Below are positions 16,078 through 63,066 of a stretch of DNA of 64,000 nt, piece after piece. Location: sequence record MK977694.1. The stretch is one strand, 5' to 3'. The position numbers and the translations under genes are program-made. Source of the stretch: Escherichia phage vB_EcoM-Sa45lw. The notes beneath the pieces were generated by a model. The model made no database searches. It was not told the origin of the DNA and saw nothing but the letters and a program-made list of their open reading frames with translations. How positions within the stretch are numbered: position 1 is the stretch's first letter; the number at the start of each line of letters is the position of its first letter.

Positions 16078-16131
16078 TCCTCATGTTATGTCAGTAAGAC
16101 TACTATAACACAACACGAGGGACTTGTAAAC
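16078..16131 (-). repeat. 54 bp promoter-leader repeat, copy 1
   Basis: Identical to 31872-31925. Confidence 0.9.
16102..16131 (-). promoter_or_regulatory. Early promoter (GTTTACA, 17 bp, TATAGT) upstream of alt.-3
   Basis: sigma70-like hexamers with TG-extended -10; part of a 54 bp block repeated at 31872-31925. Confidence 0.6.
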
Positions 16132-18188
16132 TACATTTTGAACTTTTTAGACATTCCGTTAATGTTAACCAAAGAAGCTAAGATTTGAGAAACTTCGTTT
16201 TCCTCTTCTTTTGATTCTTCTACAAGGAATTGATTAAATCCAGCCATTGGACGAACTTCACCAGTTTCCATTAGATGGTCGCCATCATATACTGATTCTT
16301 CTAATTGTTCAGAAGGAGGAACGATTGTACCTTCGATTAGATACTTGTTATAAGCAGTTTCTTTCATAAAGTAAGTACTTACTTTATTAATCTTCAGTAA
16401 AATTCCACGTGGTAGAATAACTTCAGCTTCTGATGGAAATCCTGATAAATGACCCGGAACGATAACTTTAACTCGTTCAGCTCCTTTAATTACCATACCC
16501 ACGCTAGTTTCAGCATCTTCATTAGCATATGTAGAATGACTACCCATATGCATCAAATCTTCTGCATCAACGGAACCTTCTCCTTCACCAGAAAATACTG
16601 CTCCGGAATCATCTAAGGCCATATAATTTTTACCATACTCACCAAAGATATTTGGTTTAAGTGATGTAGATACGAAGTTCTTGAAATAGAACATTTTATT
16701 TTCAATGTTATGACGCAAAGTTTTAAAAGTAACTTCTTGTCCACGGTAAAGTGTAGTTCCTGGAGGAAGAACTGAACCTTTAGCAAACGCAGAATCCATA
16801 GTCTCGATGTGCTTAATAGCGCGCTCCATGTATTCTTCACGTGTAGAATCAGGTTTACCTAAAAGGAATGAGTTCATTTCAACATACGAATCTGCACAAT
16901 AATCTTCAATTACATCAGATTCAGCCTGAGTCAATCCTTTTGGAGTTACTTCAGTGCTTGCATATTCATACGCCTGAGCAGCGGATTCATCAATTAATTT
17001 ATAAATGCCATTCATGACAAATTGAATAATAGCTGTCTTTTCATCTGGCGTAGCTTTAGAACCTTTAACTAAATCATTGACAATTTTCTTAATAACATCA
17101 AAGCTATTAGAAATATTAATGTCAGCAAGATCGCTTAAAATTTTATCAGTTTTATAATCAAAGAATTCTTTATTCTTTAAATATTCTTGAGAACCTTGAT
17201 ATGTTATATCGCTCTGCAGCTTGATAGATGGATCACGTAAACGTGCATGGGCTAATGCAATATGATTTCGGAAGCTTTCTAGTTCATAATCACTAGATTT
17301 AAAACGAGAAGCACTCCTCATACCACCGATAGCTCCTTTGCCGAAGTTTGAACCAATCTGAATAACGCCAGAGTTCATTGGTCCTTCTGCTTTATATACC
17401 GGAACTTTAGATTCAAACTCTTGATATTTCTTAGCAGCAAAGCTATCACCCTGAAGTGAAGCATCAACAGTAGAATATTGAGCTTGTGCTGCTAATCGAC
17501 GACTAATTTTAGTTTTCTGAATAACAGCTTGATCCGTACGCTTATCATTTTCTAAAGCAATAGAAGCAGCAACTGCGACAGCTTTAGGAACAGCATTACC
17601 TGTTTTAACGTCTACATAAACATCACCGACTTTCGATTCAACTTTTGTGAATAACTCAGTTGAAATAGGAGGTACACCTGGAATGTCTTCTAAATTGGCA
17701 TTTTTACGGTAAACCATAATATATGCATATTTCTTATCATAGTCCCAGATTTCCTTTAAAAGAACATATCGACCTGCTCCTTTAGTACGTACTAAACGGT
17801 CAGCAATAACTTGCATTTGACGAGCAGCGCCATTTGTTTTACTTTTTAGTACGCGGAATAGGCATGCATCAATTTTATACTGTTTCATTGTTTGAAGAGC
17901 AGTATCAAAAACCGCATTAATGACACCAATTGGATTTCCACCCAAGTTTTTAAGCTTAACTAACGATAATTTCTCATTAACACCTATCATTACGATATGC
18001 ATCATTTTGTCGCCTGGCTTAACGTTTTTATTCGTATCACCGCCAGAGGTGTATGTACAAAATCGAAATCCAGGAAGAACGCTTTCTTCACCGGCTTGAA
18101 TAGCAAAAATTTGAGGTATTTTATGCTTAGGATTTAAGTTAACAACCGGCGCCGAAGCGCCGTCAAATAATTCTGTAATAAGTTCCAT
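16131..18188 (-). CDS. Alt-like ADP-ribosyltransferase paralog (intact)
   Basis: 685 aa; N-terminus MELITELFD as in Alt; ART motifs YRGQ, FVSTSL, EVILPRG. Confidence 0.85.
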   Translation of the reverse strand: MELITELFDGASAPVVNLNPKHKIPQIFAIQAGEESVLPGFRFCTYTSGGDTNKNVKPGDKMMHIVMIGVNEKLSLVKLKNLGGNPIGVINAVFDTALQTMKQYKIDACLFRVLKSKTNGAARQMQVIADRLVRTKGAGRYVLLKEIWDYDKKYAYIMVYRKNANLEDIPGVPPISTELFTKVESKVGDVYVDVKTGNAVPKAVAVAASIALENDKRTDQAVIQKTKISRRLAAQAQYSTVDASLQGDSFAAKKYQEFESKVPVYKAEGPMNSGVIQIGSNFGKGAIGGMRSASRFKSSDYELESFRNHIALAHARLRDPSIKLQSDITYQGSQEYLKNKEFFDYKTDKILSDLADINISNSFDVIKKIVNDLVKGSKATPDEKTAIIQFVMNGIYKLIDESAAQAYEYASTEVTPKGLTQAESDVIEDYCADSYVEMNSFLLGKPDSTREEYMERAIKHIETMDSAFAKGSVLPPGTTLYRGQEVTFKTLRHNIENKMFYFKNFVSTSLKPNIFGEYGKNYMALDDSGAVFSGEGEGSVDAEDLMHMGSHSTYANEDAETSVGMVIKGAERVKVIVPGHLSGFPSEAEVILPRGILLKINKVSTYFMKETAYNKYLIEGTIVPPSEQLEESVYDGDHLMETGEVRPMAGFNQFLVEESKEEENEVSQILASLVNINGMSKKFKM

Positions 18189-18191
18189 GAT

Positions 18192-20285
18192 TTATCCTTG
18201 AACGAACTTGTAAGGCATGTTTGTAATATCTATGCAAGACGCAATAATTCCAAGAGATGATTCTACTTTCTGTTTAATATTTGATGAAACAAATGATGCA
18301 AAGTCAACTCTGTCTTCTATTTCAATATCACCTGTCATTGCAACCAATTCACCAGTTTCCATTAAATGGTCTCCATCATAGATTACCGATTCGGTGAGCT
18401 CTTCCGTGGTCATAACTTCAGCTTGAATGAGTTTTGTATTATTAGATGTTGTTCCGTCATTATTAGAAGCATCAGTTATTTTATTAACCTTGACCATCAA
18501 TCCGCGTGGTAGAATAACTTCAGCTTCTGTTGCTATTCCGAGACTTCCTGGATATACAACATTAACTTTATGAGCTCCATCAATTGCCCATCCTATTTGA
18601 ACTTTAACATATTCAGGATTTTCTTTATACGCTCTTATTTCGTTTGGATTAATAGTTATTCCTTCTTCATTTTTATCAACTGTTAATTCGTTACGAGCTT
18701 CTGGTTCTAAAAGACCAATACCAGCATGTGTGATTCCAAAACGTCCAAAAATGATAGGAGTTAAAGAAGTAGATACAAAATTTCTGAAGTAGAACACTTT
18801 ATTTTTAACTAACGCTTCATATATAGGAGCAGTCATACTTTGAGCACGATAAACTGTAATGCCTTCTGGTATACGGTCACCATTTTCAAAAGCTGAATCT
18901 AAGTTATTTATAGCAGATTCAATTTCTTTTTCACTCATTACATCGTATCGTTCTGGATTGTAACGACCTAAAAGAAGATTATTGATGTCAGTATATCCTG
19001 AACCGCAATATTCTCTAATGCCACGCTTTTGTGATGGAGTATATTTAGAACCATCGCGGGCAATAGTAATATCAATCATTGGACCAGCACCAATTCCAGA
19101 AAAACTGTAAATCATTCGTTTGAGGAATTTAGTTTTTGCTGCGTTCCAGGAATTTTTAGTTATTTCTTCCCAGACTTCATCTGGTTGTCCTTTACGATTT
19201 TTATTATGATTAGCAAGCCATTTATCTTTATAATCTTCAAAGAATTGATTTACAGCTGCTGCGTATTTCTCTAAACATTTTATTGAAGTAGTTGGTTCAT
19301 TTTTAATTGCATTAAAAATTACTTCTTTAATTTTTTCTGAAACTTCACCGACTTGACTCATTGGAAAGAATTTATAATCATAGTGAAGTTCATCTGCCGT
19401 TCCTTCAGCAATAATTTTTGCTGCCTTTGTTTTAGAAGCTAATGAATTAATTCCAATTTTCATTTCTTCTGCTTCGGGAATTAAAGGTGCAGTAGCTGGT
19501 TTATTAAAATTAGCTGCTGTAGATTCATACTTCTGGAATAATTCACTTTCAAATCTAGAAGATTCCAATGACTGACTTTGTGCAATTGCTCTACGGGAAA
19601 TTTTAACTTTAACGATTACGGCTTGGTCAGAACGTTTATCATTTTCTTGTGCAATAGATGCAGCAATTGCCTCATTTTTGGTTACTTGAGCTCCAGTATC
19701 TTTATTGATATAAACATCACCGACCTTCGATTCAACTTTAGTAAAAAGCTCGGTGCTAATTTCTGGAACTCCTGGAATGTCTTCTAGTGATACATTTTTA
19801 CGATGTATAAGAATATATGCATACTTTTTATCGTAATCCCAGAGTTCCTTAAGAAGGACGTATCTGCCACCTGAACGACTGCGGATGAGTCTATCAGCAA
19901 TAAGTTGAATTTGTCGAGCTTGACCGGCGGTTTTAGACTTAAGAATACGAAGCATGCAGGCATCAATTTTATATTGACGCATTGTTTGCATTGCAACAGT
20001 AAAAACTGAATTGATATAATTAATCGGGCTTGGACCAAGACCTTTTAATTTAGCAATTGAACCTTTAGCAGTTAATGTAAAAGGAACAATGTGCATCATT
20101 TTATCGCCCATCTTTAAATCACGATTAGTATCACCTCCAGATGTATAGGTACATAAACGAAAGCCTGGTTGTTCAATTGCATCATCAACATGAACTGAAA
20201 AAATTTGTGGTATTTTCTTCTTTGGATTTAAGTTTGTAATCGGAAGAGTAGTATCTTCGTCAAATAATTCTGTAATAAGTTCCAT
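18192..20285 (-). CDS. alt: Alt ADP-ribosyltransferase (capsid-packaged, modifies host RNA polymerase)
   Basis: 697 aa; MELITELFDEDTTLPITNL...; ART motifs YRAQ, FVSTSL, EVILPRG. Confidence 0.92.
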   Translation of the reverse strand: MELITELFDEDTTLPITNLNPKKKIPQIFSVHVDDAIEQPGFRLCTYTSGGDTNRDLKMGDKMMHIVPFTLTAKGSIAKLKGLGPSPINYINSVFTVAMQTMRQYKIDACMLRILKSKTAGQARQIQLIADRLIRSRSGGRYVLLKELWDYDKKYAYILIHRKNVSLEDIPGVPEISTELFTKVESKVGDVYINKDTGAQVTKNEAIAASIAQENDKRSDQAVIVKVKISRRAIAQSQSLESSRFESELFQKYESTAANFNKPATAPLIPEAEEMKIGINSLASKTKAAKIIAEGTADELHYDYKFFPMSQVGEVSEKIKEVIFNAIKNEPTTSIKCLEKYAAAVNQFFEDYKDKWLANHNKNRKGQPDEVWEEITKNSWNAAKTKFLKRMIYSFSGIGAGPMIDITIARDGSKYTPSQKRGIREYCGSGYTDINNLLLGRYNPERYDVMSEKEIESAINNLDSAFENGDRIPEGITVYRAQSMTAPIYEALVKNKVFYFRNFVSTSLTPIIFGRFGITHAGIGLLEPEARNELTVDKNEEGITINPNEIRAYKENPEYVKVQIGWAIDGAHKVNVVYPGSLGIATEAEVILPRGLMVKVNKITDASNNDGTTSNNTKLIQAEVMTTEELTESVIYDGDHLMETGELVAMTGDIEIEDRVDFASFVSSNIKQKVESSLGIIASCIDITNMPYKFVQG

Positions 20286-24224: not shown

Positions 24225-24264
24225 AGTATTTTCCTCAGTAAGGGGCCGAAGCCCCTGTTTTATT

Positions 24265-24630
24265 TTAAATATCAAATTCGTTAAGAACTACATCAAAGAT
24301 TGCTTCAAGATGCTCAGGTTTAGCTCTGTTACTCAAAATATGACGAATCCAAGTTTTAACCAGAAGCTTACGATTAGCGCCATTCCAGCAAGGATGGGTC
24401 CCTAAATCGCGTTGACGAAAATCATCATCCAGAGCGATTTTGAAGTTTGAACCTTCCATTGTGATTGAAACCGTGATGCCATTTTCAAATCGCATATAAA
24501 CGTAGTTAGGAGTCATATACTGTTCAATTTCGCATACTGATCCATTTTGATGTTTCCAAAGGCAAATAGTATCAATAGAACCTGCAATACCATTAGAAAC
24601 ATATTTACGTTCAAAGTTGATGTAGTTCAT
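24265..24630 (-). CDS. Hypothetical protein
   Basis: 121 aa ORF, early promoter upstream. Confidence 0.55.
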   Translation of the reverse strand: MNYINFERKYVSNGIAGSIDTICLWKHQNGSVCEIEQYMTPNYVYMRFENGITVSITMEGSNFKIALDDDFRQRDLGTHPCWNGANRKLLVKTWIRHILSNRAKPEHLEAIFDVVLNEFDI

Positions 24631-25058: not shown

Positions 25059-25088
25059 ATACTATCACAAAGGAACCATACTGTAAAC
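25059..25088 (-). promoter_or_regulatory. Early promoter (GTTTACA, 17 bp, TAGTAT)
   Basis: Hexamers on - strand upstream of ORF 24699-25031. Confidence 0.5.
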
Positions 25089-25117
25089 AACTTTATGCAA
25101 TCTTTGGAAAATAAAAA

Positions 25118-25138
25118 AGGACTCCCGAAGGAGTCCTT
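25118..25138 (-). terminator. Rho-independent terminator
   Basis: AAGGACTCC-ttcg-GGAGTCCTT followed by TTTTTTATTTT on - strand. Confidence 0.75.
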
Positions 25139-26895: not shown

Positions 26896-27476
26896 TATTC
26901 ACCACAGAATTCGTTGATATTTTCCCAGTTTAACTTATTCAAGTTTTTCTTAGGAACATTAAACACTTCAATACCTGCATTTCGCAGAATATCATCCCAG
27001 CCAGGTTTATTTTTATCGTATGTTTCGCAATAAACCAGTTTTTTAATACCAGATTGAGCTATCGCTTTTGCACAATCTGGACAAGGAGAAAGTGTTACAT
27101 ACATAGTAGCACCTTCAATAGAAGAACCATTTCGTGCAGCAAACAAAATTGCATTTAGTTCAGCATGAATTTCATTTTTAGACGACCATTCAGAGTGAGC
27201 ACTACGATGTTCTTTAGCCAAGACAAAGCGATCAGTTGAACCAAATGATACGCATTCAGGTTTATGGCCTTGAATGATAGTGTGTTTAGGCTTATTCAAC
27301 AACCAACCTTGCTCAGCAGCATAATCACAACAGTTCACACCACCAGCAGGTGAACCATTATATCCGGTAGAAATAATACGTCCATTCTTTTCAATTACTG
27401 CTCCTACCTTCCAGGAGCAACATTTTGATTCCTGCGATACTAAATATGCAATTTGAAGTACTGTACTCGCTTTCAT
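26895..27476 (-). CDS. cd: dCMP deaminase
   Basis: 193 aa; zinc-binding deaminase motifs HAELNA and PCPDC. Confidence 0.95.
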   Translation of the reverse strand: MKASTVLQIAYLVSQESKCCSWKVGAVIEKNGRIISTGYNGSPAGGVNCCDYAAEQGWLLNKPKHTIIQGHKPECVSFGSTDRFVLAKEHRSAHSEWSSKNEIHAELNAILFAARNGSSIEGATMYVTLSPCPDCAKAIAQSGIKKLVYCETYDKNKPGWDDILRNAGIEVFNVPKKNLNKLNWENINEFCGE

Positions 27477-27811: not shown

Positions 27812-28044
27812 AGTACGCCATACACCCTTTGTGCTTCAACTAATCCATCAAAATCCAATTTGAGATGTGTTATTTGGTCACCATCACCTGGATTCACAAT
27901 TACTAATACTGAACGAGGAGTTTCTGTAATAACACGAACCGATGTTTCTGGAAATCGTTCAGAAACCTTATTTACCAATTCTTGAGCAAATAGTTTAACT
28001 TTTTCTTGGAATTCTTTAACAGTAATTGGTTTTTCGCTTAGCAT
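27808..28044 (-). CDS. Hypothetical protein
   Basis: 78 aa ORF. Confidence 0.5.
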   Translation of the reverse strand: MLSEKPITVKEFQEKVKLFAQELVNKVSERFPETSVRVITETPRSVLVIVNPGDGDQITHLKLDFDGLVEAQRVYGVL

Positions 28045-28565
28045 GTTGATCCTAGCTCCTTACTTTCAACGTTTTTAACTAATTTGACAGAAACTAATTC
28101 AGCATCTTGGGTAATCATTACCGGGCCTTCTTCATACTCTTCAAGATATTCTAGAGCTTTGTTTTTAGCTTCTTCCTTCGTATCAGTTTGAGCATAGATA
28201 TAGAACATACAACCAGTAATACCTACTACTTTCCACTTAATTTCTTTATCAGTTTTAATTTCAAATTTACTGACAGAATCATCTTTTTGAACTTCTTCGA
28301 AAAAAGAATATTCTAACATATAAGTAATTGAAAATAACGGGCTAACTTTATAGGATTCGCCCATTACATCAACAGCTTTATACCAACAGTCATCAATTTC
28401 GCGTTTAATGCTAATAACATTTTTCGCAGGATCTATTTTTACTTTAAATGAATTTTCCCCAATAAACTGGGCAATTCGTTTATTAGCCCCGCAAGTTTCA
28501 TTAAAAATATCTTTATACCCAGTTTTAAAGCGATAAACCTTATCTTCTTCAAACCATTCGCTCAT
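28038..28565 (-). CDS. Hypothetical protein
   Basis: 175 aa ORF; SD GAGGA; early promoter upstream. Confidence 0.55.
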   Translation of the reverse strand: MSEWFEEDKVYRFKTGYKDIFNETCGANKRIAQFIGENSFKVKIDPAKNVISIKREIDDCWYKAVDVMGESYKVSPLFSITYMLEYSFFEEVQKDDSVSKFEIKTDKEIKWKVVGITGCMFYIYAQTDTKEEAKNKALEYLEEYEEGPVMITQDAELVSVKLVKNVESKELGSTC

Positions 28566-28595: not shown

Positions 28596-28625
28596 ATAAT
28601 ATCACAACTCTACCGTAAAGTAAAC
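28596..28625 (-). promoter_or_regulatory. Early promoter (GTTTAC, 18 bp, TATTAT)
   Basis: -10 flanked by 7 bp inverted repeat GGTAGAG/CTCTACC. Confidence 0.5.
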
Positions 28626-31871: not shown

Positions 31872-31925
31872 TCCTCATGTTATGTCAGTAAGACTACTAT
31901 AACACAACACGAGGGACTTGTAAAC
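31872..31925 (-). repeat. 54 bp promoter-leader repeat, copy 2
   Basis: Identical to 16078-16131. Confidence 0.9.
31896..31925 (-). promoter_or_regulatory. Early promoter (GTTTACA, 17 bp, TATAGT) upstream of alc
   Basis: Part of 54 bp block identical to 16078-16131. Confidence 0.6.
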
Positions 31926-40631: not shown

Positions 40632-40892
40632 TTATTTTTGAATTTTATCGAGCCACTTACCAAGCTTAATCATTTCTTTAGTAGCCTTTTCCATACTTCT
40701 GAACTTAACCAATAGAGGATAGGTATCGACACCCATAACTAAACTGGTTACAAGACTGTGTTCACCCACAAGCCATAATGAATACGTTTGAATATCGAGC
40801 CCGTAATTTCTGTCTTTATGGACCCGTACACCCATCACTTCAAATTTCTCACTAGCTTTTTCTACCGCATCCAGGAAATCATCTTTAGTCAT
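40632..40892 (-). CDS. Hypothetical protein
   Basis: 86 aa from ATG at 40892, one nt after the stop of the upstream ORF. Confidence 0.5.
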   Translation of the reverse strand: MTKDDFLDAVEKASEKFEVMGVRVHKDRNYGLDIQTYSLWLVGEHSLVTSLVMGVDTYPLLVKFRSMEKATKEMIKLGKWLDKIQK

Positions 40893-40893
40893 A

Positions 40894-41295
40894 TTAGGCC
40901 TTAAAAGTTTTTCGCAAAAGTTCAATGATTTCATCTACATTGTTTTCATCAACAATGCAGTGAATTTTTGTCACGTCAGAAACCTTGTCTTCGATTTCAT
41001 CTTCTTCAGAAGTCGGTTCTTTATATTCGCGGAAACAATAAAACTCTTCTTCACGAAGTTCAAAATAATCATCATCCATACCATCATCATTATAGATTTC
41101 ACCATTAGCACAAATGATTTCGGTTACATAATCAAAGCCATCTAAACTTAATATTGATTTAACTTCAAACCAACCACCATTTTCTTGAATGATGCCGACC
41201 ATACTAGCATTTAATGAACTAATATCAATGAAAGATTTAATATGACGTGGATTTAACTCGTATTTTTTTTCCAACTTCCACTTTGATTTCCTCAT
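40894..41295 (-). CDS. Hypothetical acidic protein
   Basis: 133 aa, net charge about -15, D/E-rich C-terminal half. Confidence 0.55.
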   Translation of the reverse strand: MRKSKWKLEKKYELNPRHIKSFIDISSLNASMVGIIQENGGWFEVKSILSLDGFDYVTEIICANGEIYNDDGMDDDYFELREEEFYCFREYKEPTSEEDEIEDKVSDVTKIHCIVDENNVDEIIELLRKTFKA

Positions 41296-41327: not shown

Positions 41328-41558
41328 TTATTGTTCAATCAGTCCCATGTAAAATTCTGCGTCTTCAGAATCCATGCCATCGCAATATTCATTAGCCATA
41401 AAGCGGGTAAGGTCTTCAAGAGGACCTTCAATGACAATAGAAAAATTGCAATAATTGGGATCATCATGAATACTTGTGATACTAAGTTCAGGATAACGAT
41501 TACGAATAATCTCTTCAATATATTCAAAATCAACGATGTCAATATCAACTTTAGCCAT
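41328..41558 (-). CDS. Hypothetical small acidic protein
   Basis: 76 aa from ATG 41558 with SD AGAGGAAA; net charge about -15. Confidence 0.5.
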
Positions 41559-41601
41559 ATTATTTTCCTCTTTAATCATCAGCAGTATTGCCGATAGTTG
41601 T

Positions 41602-41631
41602 ATAGTACCATAAAGCCTTATGTTTGTAAAC
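41602..41631 (-). promoter_or_regulatory. Early promoter (GTTTACA, 17 bp, TACTAT) immediately downstream of the gene 32 terminator
   Basis: Near-identical to the cassette at 58309-58338. Confidence 0.55.
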
Positions 41632-41652
41632 CGTTTTGTGAAAAAATTTTTG

Positions 41653-41681
41653 AAATAAAAAAGGGGACCTCTAGGGTCCCC
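41653..41681 (-). terminator. Gene 32 terminator
   Basis: GGGGACC-ctaga-GGTCCCC followed by TTTTTTATTT on - strand. Confidence 0.8.
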
Positions 41682-41703: not shown

Positions 41704-42612
41704 TTAAAGGTCATTCAAAAGGTCATCCAGGTCCGTGTCATCAGCACTAGATGAACTGCCAGAGCTTGAGCTCATAAAATCATCTTCAGTTTTTGTATTG
41801 AAGTCATCAACATTGAATGCATCCAAATCATCAGCAACTTTATCAGCTTTCTTAGCAGCAGTTGCAGCGGCACCGCCCATCACAGCAGTTCCCATAACTT
41901 GACCGAATTTAGTATTCAGTTCTTCAAACGATTTGAATTTATCTTTAGAAGTCATTTCAGAAAGGTCAACCATTTGTTCGAACAGTTCTTTCTGGAAAGA
42001 TTCATCGTCAATGTTTGGAATCGCAGATTGATTCAGGAATTTAGATTCGTCGTAGTTACTAAAACCAGAAACTTGTTTAACTTTCAGTACAAAGTTAGCA
42101 CCTTCCCACGGACAAGTTACATCAACCGGAGTTTCACCCATTTCAACATCAACTGCAATCATTGCATTGATTTTATCCCAGATTTTCTTACCGAAACGAT
42201 ATTTAAATACTTTACCTTCGTTTTCTGGAGCAGCTGGATCTTTTACAACAAGAATGTTAGCCCAGTAAGAAGTTTTACGTTTAACAAGACCGTACTCTTT
42301 ATTGTCAGTGTTGTACAAATCATTTTTACTGATGTACTGACATACTGGGCAAGAATCGTAATCACCGTGGGTAGATGAACAGTTTTCAATATACCATTTA
42401 CCATTTTTCTTGAAACCGTGATTTACAAGAATTGCGAATGGTGCTTGTTCATCATTTTTAGACGGAAGAAAACGAATTACTGCTTGACCGTTACCCGCAT
42501 TGTCGAGTTTCAGTTTCCACTCGCCTTTATCTTCAGAAGAAAAACCACCTTTATTTCCAGCCAGTTTAGCCATTTGCGCAGCGAGTTCAGCAGTAGATTT
42601 ACGTTTAAACAT
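41704..42612 (-). CDS. 32: Single-stranded DNA-binding protein gp32
   Basis: 302 aa; zinc site [14 protein letters not shown]; acidic C-terminal tail. Confidence 0.97.
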
Positions 42613-42711
42613 TTTTATTTCCTTTTTAATTTAATTAACAGTTGGTGCTATGACGATGTATGACCTCATAGCTGGTCAGTGAGATAATTATAATCTATTT
42701 ATAATAAGCAA

Positions 42712-54882: not shown

Positions 54883-55539
54883 ATGGCAGCACCTAGAATA
54901 TCATTTTCGCCCTCTGATATTCTATTTGGTGTTCTAGATCGCTTGTTCAAAGATAACGCTACCGGGAAAGTTCTTGCTTCCCGGGTAGCTGTCGTAATTC
55001 TTTTGTTTATGATGGCGATTGTTTGGTATAGGGGAGATAGTTTCTTTGAGTACTATAAGCAATCAAAGTATGAAACATACAGTGAAATTATTGAAAAGGA
55101 AAGAAATGCACGCTTTGAATCTGTCGCCCTGGAACAACTCCAGATAGTTCACATATCATCTGAGGCAGACTTTAGTGCGGTGTATTCTTTCCGCCCTAAA
55201 AACTTAAACTATTTTGTTGATATTATAGCATATGAAGGAAAATTACCTTCAACAATAAGTGAAAAATCACTTGGAGGATATCCTGTTGATAAAACTATGG
55301 ATGAATATGCAGTTCATTTAAATGGACGTCATTATTATTCCAACTCAAAATTTGCTTTTTTACCAACTAAAAAGCCTACTCCCGAAATAAACTACATGTA
55401 CAGTTGTCCATATTTTAATTTGGATAATATCTATGCTGGAACAATAACCATGTACTGGTATAGAAATGATCATATAAGTAATGACCGCCTTGAATCAATA
55501 TGTGCCCAGGCGGCCAGAATATTAGGAAGGGCTAAATAA
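54883..55539 (+). CDS. t: Holin T
   Basis: 218 aa; MAAPRISFSPSDILFGVLDRLFKDNATGK matches T4 T. Confidence 0.95.
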   Translation: MAAPRISFSPSDILFGVLDRLFKDNATGKVLASRVAVVILLFMMAIVWYRGDSFFEYYKQSKYETYSEIIEKERNARFESVALEQLQIVHISSEADFSAVYSFRPKNLNYFVDIIAYEGKLPSTISEKSLGGYPVDKTMDEYAVHLNGRHYYSNSKFAFLPTKKPTPEINYMYSCPYFNLDNIYAGTITMYWYRNDHISNDRLESICAQAARILGRAK

Positions 55540-57631: not shown

Positions 57632-58267
57632 TCACAGTTCAGATGCTACAGTGATTACAGCTTCAATGTTTTCTGCCGAGCGTTTAATGTCAAGATACAC
57701 ATTACCGTTTTTAGCGATTTTACATGACATTCCGATATCAGTAAATTTCTGAATATGATGTTCCATCATTTTGTATCCAAAAATTCGCATATTTCCATTG
57801 TTGTTAATTTCAAAATTACGAATTCCGTGAGTGCGTTTTTCTAAAATAGCGAGATAGTTACTACGATAAGTTTCGACCTTTTTAAGAACAAATCCATTTT
57901 CATCTAAAAGTTTTAACATGAGGTCTTTATCTTCTTCCATATCAGAAGTAATTTCGCGAGCTTTACGAGTTGCTCGTTTTTTCAGCAGTTCCGGAGCATT
58001 TTCCTGTGCGTATAAAGTTGCTGCGTTTGAAATAATATCCTGAGCTTCACCAGTAATGATTAATCCATCACCAGATTTCTCCACTAGGCCTTTTTTAATC
58101 AATACCCCAATATTACTATTAACTACTGCGTTACCTAAATCTGGATGCACCTCACGAACTTCTGCAGCTGTAATGAAATCTTTCTTAGCAATAGTAATTA
58201 AAATCGCAGCAGTTTTTTCATTCAGAACATCGTTAGAAGCTTTGATGATGTAAGTTACTTTAGACAT
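57632..58267 (-). CDS. motA: MotA middle-transcription activator
   Basis: 211 aa; MSKVTYIIKASNDVLNEKTAAILITIAKKDF matches T4 MotA. Confidence 0.95.
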   Translation of the reverse strand: MSKVTYIIKASNDVLNEKTAAILITIAKKDFITAAEVREVHPDLGNAVVNSNIGVLIKKGLVEKSGDGLIITGEAQDIISNAATLYAQENAPELLKKRATRKAREITSDMEEDKDLMLKLLDENGFVLKKVETYRSNYLAILEKRTHGIRNFEINNNGNMRIFGYKMMEHHIQKFTDIGMSCKIAKNGNVYLDIKRSAENIEAVITVASEL

Positions 58268-58308
58268 TTTCTAATCTCCGTAATTCTGTATCAGTAGTTG
58301 ATAGTTGT

Positions 58309-58338
58309 ATAGTACCACAGTATGCTTTGGTTGTAAAC
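58309..58338 (-). promoter_or_regulatory. Early promoter (GTTTACA, 17 bp, TACTAT) for motA
   Basis: Shares a ~40 bp near-identical upstream block with the cassette at 41602-41665. Confidence 0.55.
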
Positions 58339-58370
58339 CGGTTTGTGAAAAAAATTTTTGAAATAAAAAA

Positions 58371-58390
58371 GGGAGAGCCTCGGCTCTCCC
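58371..58390 (-). terminator. Rho-independent terminator
   Basis: GGGAGAGC-cgag-GCTCTCCC followed by TTTTTTATTT on - strand. Confidence 0.75.
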
Positions 58391-58395
58391 TAAAA

Positions 58396-58545
58396 TTACT
58401 GCATGACTGTGATAACTGTCATGATAACACGTTGAATTCCGAACGCAAGAAGACCTCCTGCTACGGCTGGAACAACACCTAAACCCGTCAGTAAAATGCT
58501 ACCGGATACTAATGCAGCGCTTGTAATACCTATGAATGGACTCAT
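58396..58545 (-). CDS. Small hydrophobic membrane peptide
   Basis: 49 aa MSPFIGITSAALVSGSILLTGLGVVPAVAGGLLAFGI...; ATGA overlap with the gene 52 stop. Confidence 0.45.
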   Translation of the reverse strand: MSPFIGITSAALVSGSILLTGLGVVPAVAGGLLAFGIQRVIMTVITVMQ

Positions 58546-59870
58546 TTGATTTCCTCTAAATCTTTGGTGTATTCTGTAACTACATTAGTAGTTTTCCAAT
58601 ATTCGTTTTCTTCTTTTTTAGCTTTAGCTTCTTCAGCAAGTTTCTTTGCTTCGTCGGAAGTCATATGAAAAATATTCATTCCAACTAATTTATCAACATA
58701 AGAAGAATACATCTCAATTTTAGAAAGTTCTTCGGTCAGTTCTTTGCGAGTTTTACCCTGTACAACAATTTCACCTGAAATTACTTTCTTAATGAAATGT
58801 GCCTTGGCAAAGGCTAAACGAAATGCTGACTCAGTTTCTTTGATTTTGTTATCAATTCGTTTTTGGACATAAGTTTTACGAACTTCAACAAAGTCTTTAA
58901 TTAAATCGACTACGTTATCGTAAACTTGTAGTTTTCCTTTCTCATTAATAACCGTAATATTCTGAGAACGACGCTCAATCAACCCGAAGTCTTTCATAAT
59001 TTTTGCGTGGCGTTCTTCTTCATTATCGCTCAAAGAATATTCTTTACGGAATTTAACTTTGAATCCAAAACCGTGCTCACCGCAAGCATCATCCCATGTA
59101 ATGAAGCCTTTATCTTCAAGTGGGTCTAAGATTTTACTCACATAAGTTTCACGATCATACTTATACGGAATCTCAGTGATATGCATTTGAGTTCGTGAAG
59201 TAAACTTATATGTTCCACGAATTTCATATTGGCCATCAATCTCAACGACTTCACCACGAAATTCTGGGAATTCTACCTTCGGTTTAGTTACTTTCTTTCC
59301 TTGAAGAGCTTGTAATACAGCTTTCTTAACAGAAGAAACACTATGAGGAAGAATGTAAGTTGCATAACCAGTTGCAATACCGGAAACACCATTAAGAAGA
59401 ACAGTAGGAATAATAGGCAAATAGAAAGCAGGCGGAATGTGTTCTTTATCTTGATGTACCGGAGCATATTCAGTATCTTTATATACGTTATAGAAATTTT
59501 TACTTACACGAGCAAAAATATAACGACTTGCTGCTGCTTTTTGGACGGTACGAGAACCAAAGTTTCCTTGACCATCTAACAGAGGAAAGTTATTATTCCA
59601 AGTGTTAGCCATCAAAGCACCTGCGTCTTGTGCAGAGTTTTCGCCATGGTGATATCCAAGGTCCGCTACACCACCTGCAATAGAAGCGAGTTTGTGAAAC
59701 TTATCTTTATTTCCTCGTGCCAAATCAAGAGCTCGAGCAATAACAAATCGTTGAACTGGCTTAAATCCATCAATCATATTTGGAATAGCACGATTTTCAA
59801 CCGTGTACATAGCATAAGCCAATGCTTCATTATCAATGATACTTTTTAAATCGCGATTATTCAGTTGCAT
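58542..59870 (-). CDS. 52: DNA topoisomerase II medium subunit gp52
   Basis: 442 aa, position and length as T4 gp52. Confidence 0.95.
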   Translation of the reverse strand: MQLNNRDLKSIIDNEALAYAMYTVENRAIPNMIDGFKPVQRFVIARALDLARGNKDKFHKLASIAGGVADLGYHHGENSAQDAGALMANTWNNNFPLLDGQGNFGSRTVQKAAASRYIFARVSKNFYNVYKDTEYAPVHQDKEHIPPAFYLPIIPTVLLNGVSGIATGYATYILPHSVSSVKKAVLQALQGKKVTKPKVEFPEFRGEVVEIDGQYEIRGTYKFTSRTQMHITEIPYKYDRETYVSKILDPLEDKGFITWDDACGEHGFGFKVKFRKEYSLSDNEEERHAKIMKDFGLIERRSQNITVINEKGKLQVYDNVVDLIKDFVEVRKTYVQKRIDNKIKETESAFRLAFAKAHFIKKVISGEIVVQGKTRKELTEELSKIEMYSSYVDKLVGMNIFHMTSDEAKKLAEEAKAKKEENEYWKTTNVVTEYTKDLEEIK

Positions 59871-61414: not shown

Positions 61415-61442
61415 TTTCTGTTCCTCCGTAGTTGATAGTTGT

Positions 61443-61472
61443 ATAATACCACAGAGGAACAGTCTTGTAAAC
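61443..61472 (-). promoter_or_regulatory. Early promoter (GTTTACA, 17 bp, TATTAT)
   Basis: Same architecture and flanking ACAACTATCAAC as the other cassettes. Confidence 0.5.
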
Positions 61473-61689
61473 AACTTTTTTAAAAATATTCGTAATAAAT
61501 GTGAATACCAACTACTACCGCTGAAACCTGTGCAACCCACCACGCACAAGCAATAAGTACAGAATTAAAAATTTTCATAATAACCTCATCACAAAAGTAA
61601 ATGTTAAACAAATTAATGGAATACTAATTAACCAAACAAAACACCACCATAATGAACTCATAGTTCAATCTCAACGATTTTCATTTTAC

Positions 61690-61896
61690 TCAATAATCCG
61701 CTAAAAGATCGACGATTGCATCACGAAGACACTTATTCGCAATACGTTTAAGAGCAATTTCAGTTTCTGGAGCATTTTGAATAATCATTGAATTCAATTC
61801 AGCCTCAGCAAACTGAAGTTCTTTAACTAATTCAGCTTTATATTTTCCTTGCCCTTTCTTAGCTTTTGCTCGTTTTAATTCAGCTGTAGTAAACAT
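61690..61896 (-). CDS. Hypothetical basic protein
   Basis: 68 aa from MFTTAELKRAKAKKGQG with GGAGA SD. Confidence 0.5.
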   Translation of the reverse strand: MFTTAELKRAKAKKGQGKYKAELVKELQFAEAELNSMIIQNAPETEIALKRIANKCLRDAIVDLLADY

Positions 61897-61930
61897 TTTA
61901 TTCTCCAAATCCGTATCAGTTGATAGTTGT

Positions 61931-61960
61931 ATATTACCACAGTCCTTGTGGTATGTAAAC
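61931..61960 (-). promoter_or_regulatory. Early promoter (GTTTACA, 17 bp, TAATAT)
   Basis: Hexamers on - strand. Confidence 0.5.
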
Positions 61961-61976
61961 CGTTTTGTGAAAATTT

Positions 61977-62534
61977 TTAAATGGAAAGATACCATCCGTT
62001 GTAGTTGCTTTTTCTTACAACCTTACGAAGGTCTTCTCTGTCACCGATGAACTTCGGAGTGTACTGGATGACACCTGGATGAATTTCTTTAGTGTTGAAT
62101 ATAATTATACAGTCAGCGACTTGATGATTTAGAATAGGCCCTAGATTTATTCCAGAACCATATGGATACTCTCCGCTGCATCCCGTTGTTACCGAAATCC
62201 AACGCGAGTCAGTTTGATGTGTCTTAACTTCTACACGAAGCCCGCAGTATCTTGGATGCGCCAATACATCCCATGCGTATGTATACGGGTCATTAACGTC
62301 CTCTTGGCCTTTGTTAACATACCCGCTTAGCCAATCTGCTACAAAAAACTCTGCGTACACCGCGATACGGCATCTTTCGATAACTTCTGCTTTATCCTGG
62401 TTCGGGTTTTGTTTTAAAGAGTATCTTGCTGTATCAGCAATTTTGACCTTCATTTCACTAGTCAAATCACTGTTCGATAGGGTAAATGTCGGAATCTGAA
62501 ATAGTCTCTGTAAACCCGGATTCGTTTTCTGCAT
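61977..62534 (-). CDS. denB: Endonuclease IV
   Basis: 185 aa, T4 DenB length and position. Confidence 0.9.
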   Translation of the reverse strand: MQKTNPGLQRLFQIPTFTLSNSDLTSEMKVKIADTARYSLKQNPNQDKAEVIERCRIAVYAEFFVADWLSGYVNKGQEDVNDPYTYAWDVLAHPRYCGLRVEVKTHQTDSRWISVTTGCSGEYPYGSGINLGPILNHQVADCIIIFNTKEIHPGVIQYTPKFIGDREDLRKVVRKSNYNGWYLSI

Positions 62535-62796
62535 TTAGACTTTCCTTTTTACCGCTGAGATAAGCGTTATATACTTTAAGAGTGCCGTAATAAATTCGGT
62601 CATTTTCATCTAAAGACTCACGGTCAAGTTCATCGAGTTCCTTTTTATCCATGACTATAACATCATTGCAATAAAGAAACCCAAGTTTTTTGTGTCCAAA
62701 CTCAAATTTATTACAGTACACAATATTAGCGTGATGATTACCATGTAGAGAAATTTCTTTTATGTCGGAATCACCGATATTCATACAATAAATCAT
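62467..62796 (-). CDS. Hypothetical protein
   Basis: 109 aa ORF; its 3' end overlaps the denB 5' end by 68 nt. Confidence 0.4.
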   Translation of the reverse strand: MIYCMNIGDSDIKEISLHGNHHANIVYCNKFEFGHKKLGFLYCNDVIVMDKKELDELDRESLDENDRIYYGTLKVYNAYLSGKKESLNAENESGFTETISDSDIYPIEQ

Positions 62797-62813: not shown

Positions 62814-62843
62814 AAGGGCCGAAGCCCTTATTTAAATTGTTCA
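62814..62843 (-). repeat. 30 bp repeat (last codons EQFK + stop + terminator hairpin), copy 1
   Basis: Identical to 63037-63066. Confidence 0.9.
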
Positions 62844-63022
62844 ATTCTTTTCTCTAAACAATCTGCATAAGATTTCATTGAGATAAACTGTGAAAGCAGT
62901 AATTCTTGCTCAACTGCACTAACCGTTAGAAACTTTGCGCTTTCTAAAAATTTGCTCAGTGCATTAATTTTGAGCATTAATTGATCGTATTCTTCTTTTA
63001 CTCGTGCTTGATAACCTAACAT
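62828..63022 (-). CDS. Hypothetical protein
   Basis: 64 aa ORF ending ...IEQFK. Confidence 0.5.
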   Translation of the reverse strand: MLGYQARVKEEYDQLMLKINALSKFLESAKFLTVSAVEQELLLSQFISMKSYADCLEKRIEQFK

Positions 63023-63036
63023 AATTTTCCTTAGTT

Positions 63037-63066
63037 AAGGGCCGAAGCCCTTATTTAAATTGTTCA
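63037..63066 (-). repeat. 30 bp repeat, copy 2 (3' end of rIIB + terminator)
   Basis: Identical to 62814-62843. Confidence 0.9.

Follow-up and report, generated by a model that had tools for sequence, protein, structure and literature searches.

Predicted terminator-early promoter cassettes at the gene 32 and motA loci of Escherichia phage vB_EcoM-Sa45lw belong to the PeSL family of T-even phages

Two intergenic regions of Escherichia phage vB_EcoM-Sa45lw, one downstream of gene 32 and the other upstream of motA, exhibit the same succession of elements on the - strand: a GC-rich hairpin with a T-run, followed by a putative early promoter. Does this resemblance reflect only common requirements for termination and strong early transcription, or are the two regions copies of one dispersed element involved in recombination of the phage genome? 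The initial annotation of this DNA had likened them to the promoter-early-stem-loop (PeSL) modules proposed to mediate gene shuffling in T4-type phages. We analyzed a stretch of 64,000 nucleotides (sequence record MK977694.1), hereafter called the window. Its group is Tequatrovirus (T4-type): both loci exhibit 95-99.7% identity to hundreds of phage records, the closest match being Escherichia phage ECO4. In the annotations of the matched records, the first locus carries gene 32 and frd.3, and the second carries motA, motA.1 and gene 52. Gene names were taken from annotated relatives, and the complete gene order from the RB51 and T4 annotation (RB51 coordinate = window coordinate + about 104,590). 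The genes that matter here are the following.

41328-41558, - strand: frd.3, an ORF with its ATG at 41556-41558, annotated as frd.3 in RB51 and T4
41704-42612, - strand: gene 32 (ssDNA-binding protein), a 302-aa ORF corresponding to gp32 in annotated relatives; the unit upstream of cassette A
57632-58267, - strand: motA, an ORF with its ATG at 58265-58267, named from the relatives' annotations
58396-58545, - strand: motA.1, an ORF of 49 aa, the final gene ahead of cassette B
58542-59870, - strand: gene 52, an ORF named from the relatives' annotations
61977-62534, - strand: denB, an ORF

The gene order around the first locus is 32, terminator-promoter, frd.3, frd.2, an ORF, a promoter and frd.1. 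The homing-endonuclease gene segG, which adjoins gene 32 in T4 and PST, is absent from the window. The intergenic region between gene 32 and frd.3 (cassette A) has the following parts, promoters being scored with a PWM built from 29 T4 sites.

41653-41681, - strand: predicted terminator, a 7-bp G+C stem with a 5-nt loop, then TTTTTTATTT
41663-41681, - strand: hairpin GGGGACC-ctaga-GGTCCCC, found by folding and terminator scan
41653-41662, - strand: T-run TTTTTTATTT, read from the sequence
41632-41652, - strand: UP-element-like block CAAAAATTTTTTCACAAAACG, with A5T6 at about -56 to -46 and AAAA at about -42 to -39
41593-41631, - strand: predicted core promoter, PWM score 56.3 bits
41626-41631, - strand: -35 GTTTAC, pattern match
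41602-41610, - strand: TGG and TACTAT, read from the sequence
41593-41601, - strand: start region ACAACTATC, just beyond the range of the initial annotation
41328-41592, - strand: leader, GAGG Shine-Dalgarno and frd.3, the unit that cassette A would drive

The spacer of cassette A is 17 nt long when counted from TTTACA, and 18 nt from GTTTAC. Its hairpin has a folding energy of -14.3 kcal/mol and is also matched by the terminator scan. The same site is annotated as a "terminator" in fPS-90, G4500, G50 and R5505, and the promoter site as a "predicted early promoter" in fPS-90. The T4 gene 32 terminator has seen experimental use. Cassette B, between motA.1 and motA, repeats this architecture.

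58361-58390, - strand: predicted terminator, a hairpin then a T-run
58371-58390, - strand: hairpin GGGAGAGCC-ga-GGCTCTCCC, found by folding and terminator scan
58361-58370, - strand: T-run TTTTTTATTT, read from the sequence
58300-58360, - strand: predicted promoter with its UP-like block, PWM score 57.1 bits, the best of the window
58333-58338, - strand: -35 GTTTAC, pattern match
between GTTTAC and TACTAT, - strand: spacer AACCAAAGCATACTGTGG, invariant in 8 phages
58309-58314, - strand: -10 TACTAT, pattern match
58300-58308, - strand: start region ACAACTATC, exact match
57632-58299, - strand: motA leader and motA, with a GGAG Shine-Dalgarno at 58276-58279

The hairpin of cassette B (-20.1 kcal/mol, z = -4.9) is likewise matched by the terminator scan, and its site is annotated as a "terminator" in G4500, G50 and R5505. 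All the elements described by the initial annotation were recovered at the places it had given. Both hairpins have the structure of intrinsic terminators and are predicted to act as such. We also considered that they might be bidirectional; neither stem is followed by a T-run on the + strand, and both look unidirectional. In T4, the counterparts of cassettes A and B have their GTTTAC starting at 146875 and 163673, respectively. The two cassettes are orthologues of these T4 early promoters and the terminators preceding them.

Two shorter versions of the cassette had been proposed at 61443-61472 and 61931-61960 (cassettes C and D below). Both indeed carry a promoter of the same subfamily; no convincing hairpin was found upstream of either (folding versus shuffles, z = -1.3 for C and -0.2 for D). 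A third cassette with both a hairpin and an early promoter is located elsewhere in the window.

61415-61490, - strand: cassette C, between ndd.5 and ndd.4, with GTTTAC at 61467-61472, TATTAT at 61443-61448 and ACAACTATC
61897-61975, - strand: cassette D, between denB and a small ORF, with a UP-like block, a predicted promoter and a leader ending GGAGAATAAAATG; by pattern and PWM, GTTTAC at 61955-61960 and TAATAT at 61931-61936, then ACAACTATC
about 25059-25137, - strand: hairpin and predicted early promoter between the 30.9 and 30.8 homologues

The last of these (fold -16.0 kcal/mol, z = -3.2) is orthologous to T4 130310, and its promoter is of a different subfamily from that of A and B.

Cassettes A and B are identical at 78 of 94 positions overall and at 65 of 74 from the T-run to the start region, in agreement with the near-identical block claimed for them. 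Aligned locally, they score 57, whereas random 92-nt pieces taken from the window score 9.0 +/- 4.1. Similarity confined to the two promoter hexamers, which would have spoken against the PeSL interpretation, is not what we find: it extends well past the -35 and -10 over the T-run, the UP-element-like block and the start region, and includes the TGG that precedes the -10. The AT-rich stretch upstream of the -35 reads CAAAAATTTTTT(T)CACAAA(A/C)CG, and the UP-like block is conserved across the alignment of the subfamily. The spacers of A and B are only about half identical; in other members of the family the similarity also extends over the spacer and the 5' leader to the ATG. GAGG or GGAG, together with the ATG, lies 35-45 nt downstream of the -10. 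A repeat search groups A, B and the denB site into one dispersed family (D2).

The pattern GTTTAC-N16-18-TANNAT has 10 matches in the window, all on the - strand, where 0.89 would be expected. The PWM scan yields 12 early promoters on the - strand and none on the + strand of the window. Cassettes A to D have the highest PWM scores (53.8-57.1 bits; shuffle maximum 19.2), and exact copies of TATACAACTATC are found in the window only at these four sites. T4 possesses 34 strict sites, every one on the - strand. Generic sigma70 scans of the A+T-rich window return about as many matches as shuffles. No match was obtained anywhere in the window with Rfam at gathering thresholds. A pattern scan of IMG/VR for the T-run-to-35 block yielded just 3 loci, not enough for a population analysis, which was based on GenBank phage records and one metagenome scan; an apparent cross-family match (121-kb PBM-1) proved to be a Tequatrovirus record matching the nrdC.11/nrdC.10 cassette.

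Such cassettes have been described before. By definition, a PeSL comprises a stem-loop terminator directly followed by AT-rich DNA, then an early promoter of the sigma70 type, and lastly the next gene's Shine-Dalgarno sequence and ATG (PMC2839356; PMC4122927), and the legend of Fig. 3 of Comeau, Arbiol & Krisch 2014 (PMC4122927) gives TTTACW-N17-TAYWAT as the PST/T4 consensus. All four cassettes have -35 and -10 elements about 17 bp apart, an AT-rich region, a Shine-Dalgarno sequence with an ATG, and dispersed copies in the same orientation. The stem-loop is present in A and B and not in C and D, which would then be "degraded" or half PeSLs in the terms of Comeau et al. The features characterizing the T4 early promoter class, UP-like tracts at about -58 to -37 and a TGn extended -10, can be recognized as putative elements. 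Because these PeSL sequence features are found in the same phage group as the T-even PeSLs, the cassettes are already known, PeSLs having been described for RB49/phi1 (2010) and for T4/PST (2014). The likeness proposed by the initial annotation is borne out in this respect.

The PST/T4 modules come from the same phage group, with the same layout and proposed role, and nothing essential differs as far as their description in PMC4122927 extends. The exchange of ndd.4/.5 and ORF268/269 downstream of denB (Fig. 6A of that paper) corresponds to the slot between cassettes D and C of the window. The RB49/phi1 PeSLs (Arbiol et al. 2010, PMC2839356) are likewise composites of a strong sigma70-like early promoter and an adjoining stem-loop terminator, and numerous copies of them flank small ORFs. 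Exchange among these copies was mapped to the AT-rich region, the loop, and the segment from the -10 to the Shine-Dalgarno/ATG (PMC2839356), and junctions of the same kinds are found here. In contrast, the promoters of RB49 conform almost perfectly to TTGACA/TATAAT and are accompanied by GGGG..CCCC stems, whereas those of the window have (G)TTTACA and TAYWAT with variable stems. PeSL-PeSL mini-circles have been demonstrated by inverse PCR in RB49/phi1 only (PMC2839356). The T4 early promoters (Hinton 2010, PMC2988021) are described as "uber" promoters with UP, -35, TGn and -10 elements; like those of the window, they have extra consensus regions and all transcribe the strand of the early genes. 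In the T4 promoter catalogue, each counts as a promoter independent of the others; the linkage to a terminator and the dispersed-repeat behaviour belong to the PeSL view. The shuffling of T-even internal-protein (IP) genes (Repoila et al. 1994, as cited in PMC4122927) also involves small non-essential genes swapped at conserved intergenic sequences, at a different locus outside the window; according to that citation, no mechanism was given at the time.

Part of the resemblance between cassettes has a functional explanation. The UP element has a distal subsite at -58 to -45 and a proximal subsite at -45 to -37 (PMC2613000), and these two subsites contain the cassettes' A5T6 and AAAA tracts, respectively. 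The extended similarity is therefore in part a known functional constraint. This is a point in favor of the view that the cassettes are the product of functional convergence only, where selection for promoter strength and termination would suffice, with no role in recombination and with nearby indels being coincidental. The shared blocks are indeed known functional elements, much of the similarity between A and B resides in constrained parts that selection alone could partly explain, and cassettes A to D are simply the best fits to a T4-wide consensus. For the spacers and the 5' leaders, no sequence requirement is known.

In T4, full terminator-promoter copies are found at nrdC.11/nrdC.10 (GTTTAC at 55384), 32/frd.3 (146875) and motA.1/motA (163673), and subfamily members without the hairpin at 27080, 53943, 70696 and 167086. 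Unrelated T4 cassette spacers have a median of about 7 of 18 bases in common. Three pairs far exceed this level.

T4 spacers 55384 and 146875: 18/18 shared
T4 spacers 166807 and 27080: 17/18 shared
T4 spacers 50973 and 2458: 17/18 shared

The nrdC.11/nrdC.10 and 32/frd.3 cassettes, which form the first pair, have a 58-nt exact tract in common. The leader ACAACTATCAACT(AC)TGATACGGATTTGGAGAATAAAATG recurs at T4 27080, 55384 and 167086, and in cassette D of the window. Given these shared spacers and leaders, the repeated unit extends from the T-run or the UP block to the ATG; where Comeau et al. (PMC4122927) draw the modules, PeSLs have the same extent. Convergence does not readily produce identical spacers and leaders at non-orthologous sites.

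At the gene 32/frd.3 locus, all the phages examined have the same terminator and the same frd.3 leader, and the base before GTTTAC together with the 18-nt spacer occurs in four forms, each listed with its matching cassette elsewhere. The record numbers refer to GenBank records with at least 95% identity to a 151-nt query, identity bands serving as a proxy for base-by-base calls.

Allele 1: window and T4; best T4 match nrdC.11/nrdC.10 (55384), 16-18/18; about 84 GenBank records
Allele 2: RB51, PST, T6, G4500, RB33 and four metagenome/IMG-VR contigs; best T4 match rnaC/e.8 (70696), 16-18/18; about 298 records
Allele 3: G50 and one contig; best T4 match the denB cassette (167086), 14/18, with the same A at -36; about 62 records
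Allele 4: two metagenome contigs; best T4 match the motA cassette, 18/18; about 59 records

The four counts total 503, against 495-513 matching records, consistent with one allele per genome. One genome, that of R5505, has gene 32 and motA cassettes with an exact tract of 45 nt in common, the whole spacer included. Since four different cores serve one locus, and each equals that of a different paralogue, convergence is a poor explanation, and transfer between copies a simple one. The start region of cassette C also varies: the window has ACAACTATC, which is absent there from seven other phages, six of them exhibiting TACCCTATC or a one-base-shorter form and G50 exhibiting TATCTTATC. The window's version matches the T4 53943 cassette. 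These data suggest that promoter cores, besides genes, are shuffled between loci. The T-even early-promoter cassettes are likely a dispersed repeat family evolving by frequent ectopic gene conversion, in which the cores at gene 32/frd.3 would have been copied from the nrdC.11/nrdC.10, rnaC/e.8, denB-downstream and motA cassettes. A literature search of incomplete coverage found no prior description of this four-allele promoter-core polymorphism, and the passages of PMC4122927 on rearrangements deal with indels and replacements, not with promoter-core copying between distant cassettes. What is added here is this polymorphism of the gene 32 locus, including its motA-type allele, which extends the PeSL idea modestly.

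Rearrangements of genes at the cassettes provide a second line of evidence. In G4500-type phages, the motA cassette is separated from motA by an insert that comprises a 228-bp ORF together with a stem-loop and a second early promoter. The insert begins right after ACAACTATCAA and is flanked by the direct repeat CTATCAAATAAATGAACTGAAAC. At a cutoff of 95% identity, 138 phage records contain the 228-bp ORF, and a homologue resides in the Gelderlandvirus UTK0003, directly upstream of a 978-bp gene similar to nrdC.10 (same length as T4 nrdC.10, annotated as "thioredoxin"). There, the ORF has a stem-loop and a promoter on one side and a promoter on the other; the two promoters form direct repeats that match over about 50 bp, between the -10 and the ATG. 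The motA cassette of PhiZZ23 has undergone a 126-bp tandem duplication with its junction at the T-run/UP boundary, and that of W143 a 63-bp tandem duplication of the promoter, each bounded by cassette parts. The Mosigvirus SA35RD has, upstream of motA, an unrelated ORF located between two near-identical promoters. We asked if this ORF might be the window's ORF following denB (61690-61896); tblastn detected no similarity between them.

The DNA right after the ATG of cassette D exists in at least four arrangements among eight phages.

denB slot with ndd.6: T4
denB slot with a 207-bp ORF: window and RB33
denB slot with a 264-bp ORF: RB51, T6 and G4500
denB slot with both the 207-bp and the 264-bp ORFs: PST and G50

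Two indels relative to T4, at 28044-28562 and 40643-40900, abut predicted early promoters with GTTTAC at 28625 and 40629, respectively. At the gene 32 cassette no gene-order change was observed among the Tequatrovirus compared. In the Gaprivervirus VR7 the order is 32, terminator-promoter, frd.2, ORF254c, promoter, frd.3, promoter, frd.1, so that frd.3 occupies a different promoter-bounded slot from that in the window. The coincidence of cassette borders with synteny breakpoints, put forward initially as a check of the PeSL interpretation, is found at the motA and denB cassettes and, downstream of the gene 32 cassette, in VR7; it does not hold for the gene 32 cassette within Tequatrovirus. In a panel of eight genomes, 4 of 22 boundaries fall within promoter footprints against 1.5 expected (P = 0.058), a weak enrichment, and many indels in the window are at ATGA gene junctions or homing-endonuclease genes and not at promoters. 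The association of breakpoints with cassettes is thus real in individual cases and not a general rule.

The non-significant enrichment, and the many indels away from promoters, also count in favor of functional convergence without recombination. Against it stand the near-identical spacers of non-orthologous cassettes, the four interchangeable spacers at one locus, the direct repeats of cassette parts flanking inserts, and the mini-circles of RB49/phi1 (PMC2839356). We regard it as quite unlikely to be the whole explanation. A dedicated mobile system, with the stem-loop recognized by a site-specific recombinase, a homing endonuclease or a hairpin-binding protein that moves the flanked genes, is very improbable. 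Arbiol et al. speculated that the GGGG...CCCC stem is a possible protein target (PMC2839356), and T4-type genomes harbor many homing endonucleases, segG being an example. However, stem sequences differ between copies, which share only the T-run and the promoter parts, and cassettes C and D border variable slots without a good hairpin. The positions of the junctions (T-run/UP boundary, -35, start region, ATG) vary as in homology-driven exchange and not as expected from a single cleavage site. Furthermore, the inserts are single ORFs of 68-88 codons with no recombinase gene alongside. A chance resemblance within A+T-rich intergenic DNA, as might be imagined from the generic sigma70 scans, is refuted by the strict-site and PWM counts on a single strand, the A/B alignment score and the retention of orthologues in hundreds of phages.

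Taken together, the observed anatomy, family structure, natural junctions and mosaic alleles make it very probable that the cassettes serve both as transcription punctuation (a terminator followed by a strong early promoter) and as homology patches for recombination. The activities in the first part of this scheme are deduced from consensus, folding and the T4 literature. The hairpin and T-run would end the upstream transcripts, that of gene 32 at cassette A and those of genes 52 and motA.1 at cassette B. The DNA downstream would form a very strong sigma70 promoter by its UP-like A/T block, TTTACA, TGn, TACTAT and start region, firing immediately after infection toward frd.3 and the genes after it (A) or toward motA (B). 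From what is known of T4, unmodified or Alt-modified host RNA polymerase would initiate there within the first minute. Cassette A would in this manner keep the immediate-early frd.x genes apart from the gene 32 message, which is long-lived and heavily expressed, and cassette B would provide an immediate-early promoter dedicated to motA, the activator of middle transcription.

As a unit of about 75-110 bp present at many intergenic sites in one orientation, the cassette would also supply short homology patches for phage homologous recombination. General recombination acting on the 40-110 bp shared by cassettes could lead to unequal exchange, excision, insertion and conversion; short homology suffices for phage general recombination (Singer et al. 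1982, as cited in PMC2839356). Exchange between copies would insert, delete or move small genes flanked by cassettes, and would also copy promoter cores between loci by ectopic gene conversion. The published role of PeSLs is that of portable homology for the gain, loss and movement of small accessory genes, leaving the transcription of neighbours undisturbed. Hundreds of sequenced phages supply natural examples, and cassettes overwriting each other's cores would constitute population-level evidence of recombination. If the proposed conversion is true, recombination over 40-80 bp of homology becomes countable in natural genomes at the gene 32 locus. For annotation purposes, these sites are to be labeled as known regulatory elements, not as unexplained repeats.

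The leaders of cassettes B, C and D exhibit a GGAG Shine-Dalgarno sequence, and GGAG in early Shine-Dalgarno sequences is the target of the RegB RNase (PMC3014915). In cassette D, GGAGAATAAAA fits the strong RegB cleavage consensus GG*AGRAYARAA (PMC3014915). These predicted leader sites may accordingly be candidates for cutting by RegB.

An ORF family of 75-78 aa with conserved sequence (…IEYDICGVRE…TFFTMIF…) is found in promoter-bounded slots that differ between genera. In Tequatrovirus the slot is upstream of motA (about 138 records), in Gelderlandvirus it is upstream of an nrdC.10-like gene, and in a Klebsiella phage it is located far from motA. The members, with coordinates within the respective sequence pieces, are:

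L007, 973-1200: family member in G4500
L015, 1468-1704: family member in UTK0003
L014, 1477-1713: family member in K65_evo1

The window also exhibits an exact direct repeat of 54 nt, the two copies of which are 15.8 kb apart:

16078-16131, - strand: copy 1, adjoining an alt-like gene
31872-31925, - strand: copy 2, in the rnlA|alc intergenic region

Each copy reads GTTTAC-N18-TATAGT followed by a leader. Thus, the copies represent a further early-promoter pair sharing the same spacer and leader. The stretches 16240-17770 and 18331-19864 are linked by several families of repeats, which are 70-82% identical and always lie about 2.09 kb apart. These point to two tandem paralogous genes, probably of the alt-type ADP-ribosyltransferase class; T4 possesses only a partial duplicate at this position.

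Relative to both T4 and RB51, the window contains an insertion of 520 bp (28044-28562), which starts exactly at the ATG following the early promoter with its GTTTAC start at 28625. In T4 this promoter lies between cd.3 and cd.2. T4 and PST carry the homing-endonuclease gene segG between genes 32 and 59; it is missing from the window at 42676-42710, as it is from RB51, T6, G4500, G50 and RB33. In the T4 literature an autoregulatory pseudoknot is placed upstream of gene 32; an Rfam search of the whole window (1-64000), including the region upstream of gene 32, returned no family at gathering score.

Between denB and denB.1, a segment of about 200 bp (62549-62750) is missing in T4, RB51, PST, G4500 and G50, and subject coordinates at its junctions overlap by 10-13 bp. 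In T6 and RB33 the alignment is unbroken across this segment, where an extra ORF is annotated (RB32ORF268c-like). An exact 30-nt repeat containing the hairpin AAGGGCCGAAGCCCTT occurs at 62814-62843 and 63037-63066. Its two copies flank the denB.1 position (about 62831-63025), so that this small gene has the same terminator-like hairpin on either side. Another hairpin, related to these, occupies 24228-24265.
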